Under the pieces are notes generated by a model. It was not told where the DNA came from and made no database searches. It was given only the letters and a program-made list of their open reading frames with translations. A stretch of DNA of 64,000 nt from Eledone cirrhosa (lineage: Eukaryota), in the NCBI GenBank assembly GCA_964016885.1, contig OZ024748.1, forward strand, positions 35,836,001 through 35,900,000, in the 5' to 3' direction. This document shows, piece after piece, positions 10,318 through 63,121 of the stretch. The position numbers and the translations under genes were made by a program. Each line of letters begins with the position of its first letter. Within the stretch, counting starts at the first letter, position 1.

Positions 10318-10907
10318 CACACACACACACACACACACATATATATATATATATATATATATATATATATATATATATATATATATATATATATATATAT
10401 ATGTATATATATATGTGTATATATATATGTATATATATATATGTATATATATATGTATATATATATGTATATATATATATATATATATATATATGTATAT
10501 ATATATGTATATATATATATATATATATATATATATATGTATATATATATATGTATATATATATATATATATATATATATATATGTATATATATATATGT
10601 ATATATATATATGTATATATATATATATATATATATATATATATGTATATATATATATGTATATATATATATGTATATATATATATATATATATATATAT
10701 ATATGAAAATATATATATGTATATATATATATATATATATATATATATATGTATATATATATATATGTATATATATATATATGTATATATATGTATATAT
10801 ATATGTATATATATATATATGTATATATATGTATATATATATATATATATATATATATATATATATATATATATATATATATATATATATATATATATAT
10901 ATATATA
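10318..10907. repeat. (CA)n then (TA)n/(TATG) microsatellite
   Basis: Direct reading. Confidence 0.95.
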
Positions 10908-11108
10908 TAGAAGTGGTTACACAACAGTTAGTTCACCATACCGAGAACAATTGTTTCACCTTAGCGGATCCTCACCTCGTAATCGGCTAACGTGAAACAA
11001 TTGTTCTCGGTATGGTGAAGTAACTGTTGTGTAACCACTTCTACCTAACTCGCCCCATGGACTGAGTGTTCTACCACTACGGATATTACCTTCCAGTGTT
11101 CTACCACT
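10907..11108. mobile_element. Fold-back PLE-end element in (TA)n
   Basis: Inverted arms at about 10907-10959 and 10992-11043; each carries GAAA-caattg-TT; bulged hairpin at 11048-11067. Confidence 0.7.
10942..10979 (-). ncRNA. Minimal type I hammerhead ribozyme (core mutated)
   Basis: cgag GTGAGGA tccgctaaggt GAAA caattg TT ctcg: 4-bp stem I and palindromic stem III; C3 is replaced by G. Confidence 0.6.
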
Positions 11109-11719
11109 ATATATATATATATACATATATAGACACATACACATATACACACACATAAACACAGATACACACATATACACATTCATACACTGATACATGG
11201 ATATATAGAAATACAAACACAGGCACATACATATACAGATGTACTCACACATACATACCCACACACATATGTACATACACATACCCACATACACACATAC
11301 GTACATACACATACCCACATATATAACTATAACACAAGGAAACATAAATATATTTTTTACCACATTTCTTTAGTTTCTGGTTAACATGGTGTATGTGAAA
11401 GAGAGAGACAGAAAGAGAGAGACAGAAAGAGAGAGACAGAAAGAGAGAGACAGAAAGAGAAAGAGAGAGAGAGAGAGAGAGAGAGACAGGTTGATACCGG
11501 TGTACACTGGGACACAACAAAACTGACAGAGACAAGTTATACTGCAACATCGGAGGTGTGGAGAGAGGAGGCTGGTATCCATGTGGGATTGGTGGTCTTC
11601 CACAAACAACCTTGCCCTGAGTTGTATCTCGGAGGGGAACTTTCTTGGTGCAAATCTCATGGTCATTGGTGACCGAAGGCGGGTCTTTCCCCTTCACACT
11701 TTAATCTTAATATATAGAT

Positions 11720-12388
11720 GTGTATAATGTGTATAAATGTGTATAATGTTTATGAATGTGTATAATGTTTATGAATGTGTATAAATGTTTATGAATGTTT
11801 ATGAATGTTTATGAATGTTTATAAATGTTTATGAATGTTTATGAATGTTTATGAATGTTTATAAATGTTTATGAATGTTTATGAATGTTTATAAATGTGT
11901 ATAATGTTTATGAATGTGTATAAATGTTTATAAATGTTTATAAATGTTTATAAATGTTTATGAATGTTTATAAATGTTTATAAATGTTTATAAATGTTTA
12001 TAAATGTTTATGAATGTTTATAAATGTTTATAAATGTTTATAAATGTTTATAAATGTTTATGAATGTTTATGAATGTTTATGAATGTTTATGAATGTGTA
12101 TAAATGTTTATGAATGTGTATAAATGTTTATAAATGTTTATGAATGTTTATGAATGTTTATGAATGTTTATGAATGTTTATGAATGTTTATGAATGTTTA
12201 TAAATGTTTATAAATGTTTATAAATGTTTATAAATGTTTATAAATGTTTATGAATGTTTATGAATGTTAATAAATGTTTATGAATGTTTATAAATGTTTA
12301 TAAATGTTTATGAATGTTTATAAATGTTTATGAATGTTTATGAATGTGTATAAATGTTTATGAATGTTTATAAATGTGTATAAATGTT
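11720..12388. repeat. 10-bp tandem repeat (aatgtttatr)n
   Basis: Direct reading. Confidence 0.95.
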
Positions 12389-13708
12389 AATTTATGTTCC
12401 TAGTTGTAGGTCATAGGTTTGTACTTTTGGAAGATGAAATGTTTCACAGTCACCCCCCCCCCTACACACACACACACACACACACTTTGAAATGTAGAAG
12501 GCTACAAGATGTGTAAATTAGTCTTTCGAGATTATCGTTTCCTCAAGCACATTGGGGGAAAACTACTAATTAGAAAAATATTTCATTTAGAGTAATTATT
12601 TTAATTAGCAAGGTAATTTTTTTAAAGTATGTTTTCCTTGGAGAAAACAAAAAATAAAAAAAAAATAAACACTAGGGTAAATTTATTTTAGTTATCATTT
12701 TTTTGTTTATTTTCACGAATCACAAATTGAATTTTGTTGACTTCTTTAACCGATTGAAGATTGTTGACTTATTTACAAGAATTCATCGAAAATATAGGGA
12801 ATACGTTTGATTATAATTTAGATATGAACAAACCCGGGAAAGACCGGGTGCGACTGCTTATATATATATATATATATATCAGCAGCTGCATATATAATCG
12901 AACCCAGTAATGGACTGTTACTGTTTGATCGACCTCGAAAATATAAAGACAAAATTGATCACAGTGGGATTTGAACACAGAGAGGGGCGAGCCAGAACAA
13001 ACCCCATCACAAATCATTCTCTCCGACGCTCTAACGACTCAGTTTAGCCACACTATACATATAGATAACAATAAAATAACATATGAAAGGTTATATAATT
13101 GAATATAGCATGTTATATACATTTCATATCAGAAATATAACATGATATACCGTGGTATAAATATAACATCAGAAATACAACGTAAAATGTTATATATATA
13201 TATATATATATCATATCAGAAATATAACATAATGTAATGTTATATATATGATATCAGAAATACAACATAATATAACATGTTATATATATATAATATGTTA
13301 TATCAGTAATATATCATATTATAACATGCTGTAAACATAGTTATTAATTCATGTCATACAATATAACATAGATAATTAAGGCTGCAAATGTAAACGACAA
13401 TAAAATAGAAAATATACCATTAGCAGACATTTTATGACATTTAAACAATTGTAAATATCATATATGTACAAACAACTGACAGATACACACCCACATATAT
13501 ATATACACAGACACACATACACACATATTCATATATACACAGACACTCATATATACACACACACATATGCACAGACACACATTTACAGCTAGTTTTAAAG
13601 ACACAGGTATCAGATCTCTTGTAGAATGTTGTGTGTGTGTATATGCATAGACGCCTGTGTGTATGAATCCATTTACTAATATGTTTATGTGTGTATGTTT
13701 GTATATGA

Positions 13709-13845
13709 AGGCGGCGAATTGGGGGATACAATCTCCTTGCAGTACTCGTTCTGGTTCTCTGCTCTCTGAGTTCAAACACCACCGAGGTGAAGTTGGCCTT
13801 TTATCCGTTCAAGGTCGATAGTACCAGTTAAGTACTGGGGTCAAT
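13709..13845 (+). mobile_element. Degenerate tRNA-derived SINE
   Basis: ggcggcgaattgg...ctgagttcaaacaccaccgaggtgaagttggccttttatccg...gtaccagttaagtactggggtc. Confidence 0.6.
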
Positions 13846-60902: not shown

Positions 60903-61569
60903 CTTTGAAGTTATTTTCAAGAAGTTAAATTATTTCTTTCTTGTGAAATTAAAGAATTCTGCTGTGGAGTTTATTTTAATATTCTGTTTACTGTCTGTAG
61001 TATTTGTTTTCGCTCGAATTTTAGTGTGTGTGTGTGTGTATATGCGTGTTTGTATGTGTGTGAACGAGTGTTTGTGTATGTTCGTGTGTGGGTGTGCGTG
61101 TGGACGTATGTGTCTGAGCGTGTATGTGAACGTGTGTGTGCGTGAACATATGTGTGTGAACGTGTGTTTACAGGTGCGTGTATGAACGCGTGTGTGTTTG
61201 TGTGTGTGTGTGTATATGAGTGTGTGAGTGTGTGTGTGTGTGTTTGAGTGTGTGTATGGATTGGTTGGTGGAGAGGTTTTTAAACACTAGTTATTTTGAT
61301 TCTTTAAAAAAGGTAAAAAATATCTTTTTTCTTACAAATTAATCTTTTTTATTCAGACTGAAAAAACTTATTCGAAACAATTAAATTGGTAACTCTCCTT
61401 CCTCTCTCTCTCTCTCTCTCTCTCTCTCTCTCTCTCTCTCTCTCTCTCTCTCTCTCTCTCTATATATATATATATATATATATATATATATATATATATA
61501 TATATATATATATATATATATATATAAGTATTGAAGTTTCCGTTGAAAATTGAAAAAGTCATAGGAGTG

Positions 61570-61700
61570 AAGAGTGCTCTATGTAAGTACCAGAGCAAAA
61601 TTTAATGTATAATAAACAATACAATATAATTACCTCATTACCAGAGGTTTCCCGAATAAGACGAATACGAAAAACGTCCTCATTCGTTCGTCGGACAAGG
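61570..61700 (-). ncRNA. Degenerate HHR plus bulged hairpin (PLE end)
   Basis: CCGACGA acgaatgaggacg...cgtcttattcgg GAAA cctc-tggtaat-gagg TA; hairpin gctc-tg..ca-ta-gagc at 61576-61596. Confidence 0.6.
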
Positions 61701-62360
61701 CAATTTAAAACATAGCGAGGCACGTATAAATATATATACATCGCCCCATGTATATCTAATCACACGTACGTACGCGACAATATATATATATATACACATA
61801 TACATACACACCCATACATATACATATATACACATATACATACACATACACATACATTCACACGCATACACACACACGTAAAAATAAGAATGTAAAAACA
61901 TCGATATAAAAAAAACAACCTAGATATAACCCCCCCCCCCCAACAGATATAAAAACACACATACACACACATATATATACGTACGCACACACACATACGG
62001 AGGCGTTCGTATACATATACAGAACGTATACACACATAAACACATTCAGACGCATAGATACAGATTATAAATCAGCCATATGAATAAATGAGTACAAATA
62101 TAAAATCGGCTGCGAAACAACAGAATATATCTGGAGTGGAAAACGCAAGTGACATGTGATATCAGTTAGTGAAAGAAAATGGGGAAGTAAAATGTGGAAT
62201 GTGAAGATATTAGGTAAGTGAATCGAAAAGTAGGGGGGGGATTTACTGGTGGATGTGAAGTAAAAATAAAAATAAAATTAAAAATAAAGTTAAAAATGAA
62301 AGTAATTCAGAAAGAGAAGTCTGTAAAGAGGATAATTTAAGGAAAGTGAAGAATAAGAGT

Positions 62361-62870
62361 TTATGGAGGATAAGTATCTGAAAGTGAGTTAAGTTTATAT
62401 GAGCTGGAAAGCAAGTGTGATTTCATGTGTGGGCAACTGGTGAAAATTTCTGTTTTTGTATTTCGGCAGGTTTTTGGTGATTTAAGGTTCTGTAAAATCC
62501 AATATTTTTCACTTATGCAGAGTGTGCATTTTCTCATTCCTCTTGCATATTCTTTAGATTGGTTCAAAATTGACCAATCCAATTTATATTAGATACCTTG
62601 GTCTTTCAAATCCCATATTCTGCTAGCCAGAGCTGTTGTGAATCTTTTTTCTGGATGTCGGAAAGATGCGACATGTGAGTAATAACGCGTTTTGAATTTG
62701 TCTTGTGTCATACCCACATATCGTTCGCTGGTGGCTGGTTGGTTGTTGCTGATGGTTGTCACTTTAGCCGCATATACAATGGCTTTGGTGTTGCATTTAC
62801 CTTGTAATGGGCATTAACTTTTGACTCTACAGGAGCAATGTTGATGTTCTCTGGGTGTTTTCTTATTGAT
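62361..62870 (-). pseudogene. PLE Cys-linker plus GIY-YIG relic (further family)
   Basis: CSCRVKS*CPLQGKC..IVY..YVGMTQDKFKTRYYSH..IWDLKD..CTLCISEK..IFTSCPH; two TAA stops. Confidence 0.85.
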
Positions 62871-62922
62871 GATATATATATATATATATATATATATAAA
62901 TATATATATATATATATATATA

Positions 62923-63121
62923 TTAGAAAATATATAGCTTTCACCGTATTTTTGACTAAAGGAATTTTAGCCTGATAATGTACGTCAATACTCTTCTTTT
63001 TCCATTTATCTGAGGGTTCTTAACACCATTATCAGGCTAAAATTCCTTTAGTCAAAAATACGGTGAAAGCTATATATTTTCTAATTTCAAACCTGCTCAC
63101 TGTTTCAAAACATACTTACTT
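62923..63121. mobile_element. Fold-back element in (TA)n
   Basis: Arms at about 62923-62980 and 63027-63084; homologous to 25833-25986. Confidence 0.75.

Follow-up and report, generated by a model that had tools for sequence, protein, structure and literature searches.

Fold-back repeats in (TA)n tracts of Eledone cirrhosa as likely PLE ends, probably copied twice from one RNA

The window, by which we mean the full 64,000-nt stretch of Eledone cirrhosa contig OZ024748.1 (35,836,001–35,900,000, forward strand), holds one full-length PLE that its motifs place in the Hydra clade, several truncated or broken relatives, and a series of short fold-backs in which a tailed and a tail-less arm usually meet head to head. 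All ten long inverted repeats listed by the first-pass annotation (10907, 14618, 16188, 26966, 28450, 30178, 33581, 34255, 38121 and 62923) are present at those positions. Its description of them as sitting directly in (TA)n tracts stands for both outer ends of nine; at 28450 the left end joins another repeat with no tract between. The features, with hammerheads called by a type I descriptor and those extra to the first list marked, are as follows.

10910–11107, family A fold-back: tail-less arm 10910–10983 (minus), tailed arm 10982–11107 (plus); core C3->G at 10975 (minus)
14618–14783, family C fold-back: tailed arm 14618–14756 (minus), short tail-less arm 14762–14783 (plus); hammerhead 3' half only
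15118–15243, family P fold-back (extra): tail hairpin at 15179 (minus)
16188–16496, family D fold-back: complete hammerhead 16234–16314 (minus) with a 62-nt stem II region; right arm tailed
16662–20446, plus, full-length Hydra-clade PLE, family 1: inverted tail-only arm 16662–16760; second hairpin at 16809; intact 800-aa ORF 16881–19283 (plus); tail-less end; hammerhead region deleted
20656–23397, plus, 5'-truncated family 1 copy: inverted tailed arm 20656–20975 with hammerhead 20788–20842 (minus); main part with hammerhead 23300–23354 (plus) and tail-less end
25121–25199, minus, complete type I hammerhead motif (extra)
25358–25432, plus, family C tail-only stub flanked by (TA)n tracts
25834–25986, minus, 3' part only of a copy of tRNA-bearing family H
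26383–26544, minus, family 1-related tail-less arm with degenerate hammerhead core
26967–27151, family C fold-back: tail right; hammerhead 3' half only
28443–28774, family E fold-back: hammerheads 28503–28552 (minus) and 28607–28656 (plus); no (TA)n tract at left end
30179–30354, family C-related fold-back: tail right; first hammerhead box absent
33581–33896, family E fold-back: tail left; hammerhead 33726–33775 (minus)
33920–34186, plus, family B tailed end with degenerate core
34255–34898, family F fold-back: hammerheads 34430–34499 (minus) and 34772–34841 (plus); left arm with 114-nt tail
35430–35587, plus, family M end: complete hammerhead 35430–35530
38121–38903, plus, family G: tailed arm in inverted orientation, followed by a non-coding unit (about 566 bp) in partial tandem; U3-A8 hammerhead 38670–38746 in the body; tail-less end
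54089–57752, minus, broken Hydra-clade PLE, family B: upstream tail copy 57664–57752; coding remnants 55388–57606; hammerhead core at 54193; tail-less end
61527–62840, minus, third Hydra lineage (family I): endonuclease remnant 62427–62840; tailed end with hairpin at 61596
62924–63121, family H fold-back: full unit about 260 bp, tandem elsewhere; tRNA-like cloverleaf, no hammerhead

In terms of ribozyme content, the earlier view that most arms contain hammerhead motifs proves too strong. A complete motif is found in four of the ten repeats, in both arms at 28450 and 34255 and in one arm at 16188 and 33581, the second arm of the latter carrying a hammerhead with A9 changed. Four others have half or mutated motifs: at 10907 one arm has a C3->G core and the other a truncated one, and at 14618, 26966 and 30178 only the GAAA half is present. 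The arms of the last two lack the motif, with a U3-A8 hammerhead in the body of 38121 (at 38670) and no type I hammerhead in the arms at 62923 or in any of 30 loci of the same family (H). Complete motifs in the window as a whole number 11, or one per 5.8 kb rather than the one per 3–4 kb first estimated, a density about 2.7-fold above the random-sample average of 63 per Mb. An Rfam search of the window returned 128 matches at E up to 1, none of them a hammerhead, and its miRNA matches were rejected as microsatellite artefacts. Most of the predicted hammerhead folds are less stable, as monomers, than the minimum-energy fold, and stem II regions reach 30–115 nt in several families.

Family 1 has a single 800-aa ORF whose predicted fold has telomerase RT (TERT) as its best match (E 4e-8) and whose C-terminus contains a GIY-YIG-type region by motif; Pfam gave no GIY-YIG match for family 1 and a sub-threshold match only for family B. 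The ORF carries RLRW at 35 (RWT), DKT at 123, CxCx5C at 659, CxxC at 759 and CxH at 787, which fits the definition of the Hydra clade, and inspection by eye points to the absence of CCHH, with a single cysteine between the two tyrosine motifs. The family is placed in the Hydra clade by these motifs. Canonical hammerheads lie near its 3' end (23300–23354 and 20788–20842) and are deleted in the 16662 copy. Because all 129 scored matches are 98–100% identical, family 1 is judged young; many intact reading frames of it are present in the genome.

Beyond the intact ORF, the window contains four Hydra-type coding stretches. The proposed PLE origin of the inverted repeats is supported by direct continuity: the ends of families 1, B and I are continuous with Hydra-type coding sequence inside the window, and those of families A and E run straight into it in other copies (4 of 30 loci, L048, L049, L052 and L055, and 1 of 30, respectively). 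Linking each end family to an ORF-bearing PLE thus succeeded for 1, A, B, E and I. Among 30 loci each of C, D, F, G and H, no directly linked ORF was seen, and their Hydra partner is for that reason inferred. The estimate of roughly ten or more distinct PLE or PLE-dependent families holds, with at least 29 hammerhead end families (at least two copies each) and at least 12 endonuclease lineages. Five of the 29 hammerhead clusters have an upstream Hydra match, some probably by mere adjacency, and 10 of 29 fit the strict hairpin pattern; some of the 29 may belong to other PLE clades. Taken together, the fold-backs are very probably the 3' ends of Hydra-clade PLEs and of their non-coding tandem derivatives. 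Pfam applied to 74 reading frames of the window revealed no credible host exon, with one sub-threshold PH-domain match over a SINE, and a PDB sequence search gave no match.

The non-coding families F and G occur as partial tandems in which each unit has one type I hammerhead, located in the body in G; the unit of F is about 520 bp and the motif is found in 28 of 30 loci. This architecture, a non-coding tandem unit with a predicted type I hammerhead, agrees with that of non-LTR retrozymes. Family H differs in lacking a canonical hammerhead, a core-like 7-mer being without A9 in all 34 of 34 instances. It yields ARAGORN tRNA calls in 5 of 7 loci and Rfam tRNA scores of 36–47 bits in 3 of the 3 loci given. 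Its tRNA-like head with A and B boxes is that of a tRNA-derived SINE, but its tandem and inverted copies and the (TA)n at its ends are at odds with a SINE dispersed as monomers that begin at the tRNA head and have target duplications and a LINE-type tail. In the tandems 53 nt precede the tRNA, one copy starts at the tRNA head, and a T5 run lies just past the cloverleaf. The Sm-alpha repeat of Schistosoma mansoni has a tRNA-type promoter.

The pattern of stubs and hammerheads is genome-wide and not confined to the window. A random 1 Mb contains 63 complete hammerheads, as compared to 0.5 after shuffling, and extrapolation suggests a genome total of roughly 190,000 predicted hammerheads. The shared (TA)n target holds up against SINEs as a reference: the 3' ends of the families adjoin (TA)n in 166 of 203 copies vs 4 of 29 for the SINE, the corresponding values in the random sample being 50/68 for family C and 7/152 for the SINE, and 27 of 36 unselected family 1 matches end at (TA)n. 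The tracts are taken to pre-date insertion on the basis of two observations, one usable case in the empty-site search, which already holds a 15-nt TA tract, and solo truncated copies with TA at the 5' edge in 22 of 66 cases, five times the 6.5% expected by chance. The alternative, that insertion took place at short AT-rich sites and most tracts arose or grew in its course or later, would account for their frequent length of 40–90 nt at element ends, for the finding of a single empty site and for the 44 of 66 solo copies without TA at the 5' edge. We regard it as improbable given the two observations above and the (TA)n preference listed for Hydra families of other phyla, although lengthening and targeting are not exclusive.

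The extension of one arm beyond the other, with a conserved hairpin, was borne out. Among 81 unselected pairs, 56 could be classified (in the remaining 25 one arm was not classable), and these comprise 54 tail/tail-less, 2 tail/tail and 0 tail-less/tail-less fold-backs (binomial p 2e-14). Each family has two fixed end sites, and partner arms stop at one fixed site per family; tails measure 64–124 nt. A small hairpin lies a few bases past each end site, the first after the tail-less site and the second after the tail end. Where copies run on beyond the tail, the second hairpin occurs in families 1, B, F and G, is incomplete in H and M, and is lacking from what follows the tail in J and K; no fetched copy of A, C, D, E, I or P continues into the element at that point.

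Inner junctions, by comparison with these fixed ends, vary between copies and cluster at short overlaps and palindromes. In 130 pairs the tailed arm reaches further inward in 39, the tail-less arm in 51, and both equally in 40. Minority alleles are common to both arms of one insertion to a degree reached by 0 of 500 permutations in 5 of 5 families, and the two arms of one insertion derive from a common source. Arms usually extend through the predicted hammerhead cut site, and the template was therefore probably uncut RNA. A change in the cleavage triplet of family C that appeared specific to tailed arms (15/55 vs 2/57 tail-less) was rejected as a selection artefact: once loci selected with the variant query are dropped, the counts are 0/24 tailed and 2/35 tail-less. 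Separately, contigs of four sequencing runs, which may come from the same sample, contain a wide variety of short family 1 fold-back joints and have greater depth on ends than on the ORF; neither observation was counted as support.

The explanation that we favor overall, and judge to be reasonably probable, is that these are PLE-end fold-backs in (TA)n formed from one RNA copied twice from two start sites. The PLE protein would nick a (TA)n tract on each of its strands, and the hairpins would position the reverse transcriptase, such that one nicked strand primes before the first hairpin to give the tail-less arm and the other primes before the second hairpin to give the tailed arm. Both cDNA copies of the probably uncut RNA would stop early and then join head to head at short matches, and the non-coding families would borrow the PLE protein. 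That the two target strands each prime synthesis, at different sites of a single RNA, is itself a likely route. Shared alleles fit equally well with snap-back copying or later gene conversion. Under snap-back, a truncated single cDNA would fold and serve as its own template, after which endonuclease cleavage at the tail-less site would allow joining to the other target end; the rare alleles common to the arms of one insertion and the junctions at short overlaps and palindromes are as expected, self-priming has been proposed for PLE inversions (PMC3846280), and the tail is reported as necessary for endonuclease recognition (PMC11167929). A first cDNA begun at the tail would, however, make the tailed arm the longer one inward, and the tail-less arm is longer more often (51 vs 39); the same hairpin after both end sites fits with one start signal used twice. 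We consider snap-back unlikely.

The resemblance to MITEs noted in the first annotation is real as far as general appearance goes, and at 38121 the two arms, 140 bp each, have equal outer ends. In general, though, a fixed tail makes the outer ends unequal, the inner junctions vary from copy to copy, and arms lead on into tandem units or into coding sequence for RT/GIY-YIG; Pfam matched no transposase family among 74 further reading frames of the window. This is not the make-up of a MITE, with its equal terminal repeats, fixed interior and transposase partner, and a reading of the arms as terminal inverted repeats of TA-targeting DNA transposons is scarcely credible overall; families 1, A, B, E and I already contradict it. 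The elements are better described as 5'-truncated head-to-head PLE ends, stubs that annotation could file under MITEs or leave unclassified; hammerheads, ribozymes and Hydra go unmentioned in the main text of an octopus repeat annotation from 2026.

A broader proposal, which we put forward tentatively and with slightly less than even confidence, is that the hairpin pair is the start signal of Hydra-clade RTs from corals to octopods, that a dimer uses one hairpin per nicked (TA)n strand, and that any RNA with the pair can be mobilized, including a ribozyme-free parasite with a tRNA promoter (family H), with about 190,000 hammerheads in one genome as the outcome. If true, one hairpin per strand would explain the inverted arm of PLEs with its one-sided tail. 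PMC8557442 names the origin of such copies and the microsatellite preference as an open task, and a precise test at the bench follows from the hairpin pair together with the one-tail rule. The E. cirrhosa genome would also be a very large reservoir of natural, predicted hammerhead variants. A search of the open literature, in which the hairpin was not targeted, found no paper centered on Hydra stubs with hammerheads in octopus, nor one on a PLE-dependent element that carries a tRNA.

In the parts of the cited papers available to us, several known systems resemble this one. In vitro, the Poseidon PLE of Anolis cuts and extends both target strands, with reverse transcription beginning at either of two sites that bound the tail (Frangieh et al. 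2024, PMC11167929), which speaks for the route favored above; as proposed here, the template is uncut RNA, and a dimer is predicted. Poseidon belongs to a different clade with an ATT target, its start site showed no difference between the strands and alone gives no one-tail rule, and a conserved hairpin pair was not encountered for it in that part of the paper.

Families F and G share the non-coding tandem unit and type I hammerhead with animal non-LTR retrozymes, for which a PLE origin is proposed and which reach up to 120,000 copies in axolotl (PMC7229834; bioRxiv 10.64898/2026.07.22.740005), fewer than the roughly 190,000 hammerheads of this genome if that prediction is true. Unlike retrozymes, F and G consist largely of inversions and incomplete tandems that lie in (TA)n and carry PLE tails; octopus is absent from the main texts of both sources, as available. 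Metazoan PLE hammerheads (Cervera and de la Pena 2014, PMC4209133) have the same palindromic short helix III, U3-A8 variant and paired opposite-strand motifs 100–700 bp apart, so that U3-A8 cores are not a novelty; those are minimal hammerheads, in contrast to the 30–115 nt stem II of several families here. Like Sm-alpha, a SINE-like repeat of Schistosoma mansoni (PMC8490949), family H combines a short tandem unit with a portion resembling a tRNA, but it differs, from what that source gives, in lacking a hammerhead, in (TA)n ends with PLE-type fold-backs and in the T5 run after the cloverleaf.

The closest likeness is to the Hydra clade itself, for which hammerheads and (TA)n targets are published, including in Hydra-1_Obim of Octopus bimaculoides (Craig et al. 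2021, PMC8557442). That paper describes a single RT and GIY-YIG ORF with RW, DKT, CxCx5C, CxxC and CxH, (TA)n as the target, a type I hammerhead close to the 3' end, an inverted truncated copy and a one-sided tail, all as seen here. The hairpin pair and the one-tail count were not encountered in its available parts, and its tails are 30–40 nt as compared to 64–124 nt. It lists one octopus family, whereas E. cirrhosa has no fewer than 12 endonuclease lineages and 29 or more end families with a hammerhead, for the most part as stubs of 150–650 bp.

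The fold-backs described here, head-to-head truncated 3′ ends, are a real, genome-wide pattern that, as judged by coding motifs, belongs to the published Hydra clade of Penelope-like elements (PLEs). All ten inverted repeats named by the first-pass annotation were recovered by self-comparison and local alignment (10/10), and its placement of them in (TA)n tracts holds at both outer ends for 9/10, the repeat at 28450 having (TA)n on the right only. They were assigned to the following end families, for each of which 30 genomic loci were fetched, as was done for a SINE control:

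10907: fold-back of family A
14618, 26966, and 30178: fold-backs of family C
16188: fold-back of family D
28450 and 33581: fold-backs of family E
34255: fold-back of family F
38121: fold-back of family G
62923: fold-back of family H, the tRNA-bearing family

The clade assignment comes from an intact 800-aa frame at 16881-19283 with the motifs RLRW, DKT, YRDDG, CxCx5C, CxxC, and CxH, a set that agrees with the clade definition (PMC8557442); the predicted structure of its product has telomerase reverse transcriptase (RT) as its best match. Four more Hydra-type coding stretches lie in the window, and endonuclease regions from all fetched DNA form 12 clusters at 85% identity. A genome search with the element of family 1, a coding family, returned 46,840 candidates; every one of the 129 that were scored is 98-100% identical, and the entire frame is present in many of them. 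At 59289-59540, a short piece of endonuclease sequence remains from yet another Hydra-type lineage. In the full-length family 1 copy, a deletion between short direct repeats has removed the hammerhead region (20386-20446).

Most window fold-backs are stubs, and their links to coding elements vary by family. Of the 30 loci fetched for each family, four in A and one in E have Hydra coding sequence upstream in the sense direction, stopping 200-240 nt ahead of the queried end. Longer copies of C and D share upstream non-coding sequence, and no ORF was seen within the 1.5 kb examined upstream of their ends. Families F, G, and H consist of non-coding units in tandem, about 520, 566, and 260 bp long, respectively. 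An origin as MITEs, with the arms as terminal inverted repeats of a DNA transposon, is contradicted.

Because Rfam showed no hammerhead in the window, a type I descriptor was written under which the core must be surrounded by stems I, II, and III, and with it 11 complete motifs are found there. The claim that most arms carry hammerheads goes too far: the arm motif is complete in 4/10 fold-backs, half present or mutated in 4/10, and absent from the arms in 2/10, and a complete hammerhead is known from longer copies of the family for 9/10, the exception being 62923. In family K (27213-27296, 35780-36100, and 36314-36634), a GAAA box lies upstream of CUGAUGA, an order that may represent a scrambled-order hammerhead. 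The window copies of families J and N (27762-28448 and 24859-25065), a partial tandem measuring about 580 bp together with a related end that has the tail hairpin, yielded no hammerhead.

In a random megabase (100 10-kb stretches from 26 large contigs, whose extents were estimated from earlier matches), 63 motifs score at least 30, compared with 0.5 in shuffled sequence; by extrapolation, the 3.0-Gb genome would hold about 190,000 hammerheads. The U3-A8 core variant, previously reported in schistosome PLEs, accounts for 9 of the 63. Hammerheads with this core occur in at least four separate families (38670-38746 in the window; loci L115, L356, L370, L338, and L318 elsewhere). All fetched DNA yields 29 hammerhead clusters of at least two copies plus 45 singletons; 10/29 clusters match a strict tail-hairpin pattern and 5/29 have an upstream Hydra match, some probably through adjacency, and the hammerhead families need not all be Hydra.

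The shared (TA)n target proposed by the first-pass annotation withstood the comparison with SINEs that it had called for: with the window's own copies left out, (TA)5 or longer lies within about 12 nt of 166/203 family ends versus 4/29 SINE ends. Rather than meeting TA, many copies of F and some of G continue into the following unit of the tandem. In the random sample, TA adjoins 50/68 family C ends versus 7/152 SINE matches, and a TA tract is located ≤260 nt downstream of 55/61 hammerheads versus 22.5% of random positions. Clusters of TA tracts (≥16 nt) number 60 in the window, which spans contig positions 35,836,001-35,900,000, versus 38.5 per 64 kb in the random sample. That the tracts pre-exist insertion is less firm than the adjacency itself; one empty site with a TA tract was found, and TA is present at the 5′ edge of 22/66 solo truncated copies versus 6.5% by chance. 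The control SINE (152 matches per Mb; 3568-4175, 25991-26172, 34942-35122, and 60682-60903) has ATT-type target duplications.

An inverted partner arm is present at 149/203 family loci, and the point where it ends is tightly defined: the arm mostly stops 64 nt before the tail end in A, 77 in C, 68-72 in D, 93 in E, and 124 in G, with two classes in F and more scatter in H. Among 81 divergent pairs, counted from matches not selected for their own family, 54 join one arm that reaches the 3′ tail end (tailed) to one that stops at the earlier site (tail-less), 2 have both arms tailed, none has both tail-less, and 25 include an unclassifiable arm; with selected loci added, the counts are 130, 7, and 0. 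The tail-less arm reaches further inward in 51 pairs and the tailed arm in 39, with 40 equal, and the arms meet mostly in short overlaps or gaps. Most arms run beyond the hammerhead cut site, in agreement with uncut RNA as the template in vitro (PMC11167929).

In families 1, A, B, C, D, E, I, and P, a first hairpin with the stem RCTC, variable loop, GAGY, RCT begins a few bases past the tail-less site. The random megabase contains 120 instances of this pattern versus 40 in shuffled sequence, and 77/120 lie ≤110 nt from TA. Its outer positions are paired in 80/94 TA-near cases versus 61/172 others, which is only suggestive of pairing because copies within a family are not independent of one another. 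A second hairpin, sought in families 1, B, F, G, H, M, J, and K, follows about 8-10 nt past the tail end in family 1 (6/7 non-TA continuations), B (1/2), and F (26/27); it follows the AT-rich tail end in at least 4/6 cases in G, is partial in H and M, and was not seen in the continuations past the tail of J and K.

PLE insertions often include a truncated copy in inverted orientation and carry a tail at one end. With a purified Poseidon protein, both strands are cut and extended, with starts at two sites bounding the tail (PMC11167929). In the elements studied here, each hairpin would position the start of reverse transcription a few bases upstream, the two nicked strands of the (TA)n target would use different hairpins of a single RNA, and the resulting pair of short cDNAs would then be joined head to head. 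Minority alleles are common to both arms of one insertion well above permuted pairs in 5/5 families tested. Snap-back copying as the source of the second arm also predicts such shared alleles and therefore stays a serious rival to priming at two hairpins.

Family H probably depends on PLEs as a parasite and carries a putative promoter of its own. Positions 54-125 of its 260-bp unit correspond to a tRNA-like cloverleaf with the anticodon CGA and without a long variable arm, and a T5 run comes next (62924-63121 and 25834-25986; L221, L222, L226, L230, and L284). Its PLE-type ends adjoin (TA)n at 26/29 loci, an inverted arm is present at 24/29, and the type I descriptor found no hammerhead in 30 loci. 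Two tandem minisatellites also occupy the window, one of about 9.5 kb at 39317-48803 (44-bp unit, 88-bp higher order, about 94% identical) and one at about 4900-9230 made of TG- and TA-rich units of roughly 65 bp.

Between the RT and the endonuclease, the 16881-19283 product has a predicted disordered linker rich in Asn, Ser, and Thr (18600-18850; residues about 580-656) that recalls the N-rich inserts of rotifer PLEs (PMC3846280). The supplement of PMC8557442 lists a Hydra family from Octopus bimaculoides that prefers (TA)n and has a hammerhead, and published consensus sequences of sea-cucumber and coral Hydra elements, judged by eye, have the hairpin stem described above. What the present analysis adds to the published clade is the scale of the pattern, a count behind the one-tail rule, the pair of hairpins, and the family with a tRNA-like part.
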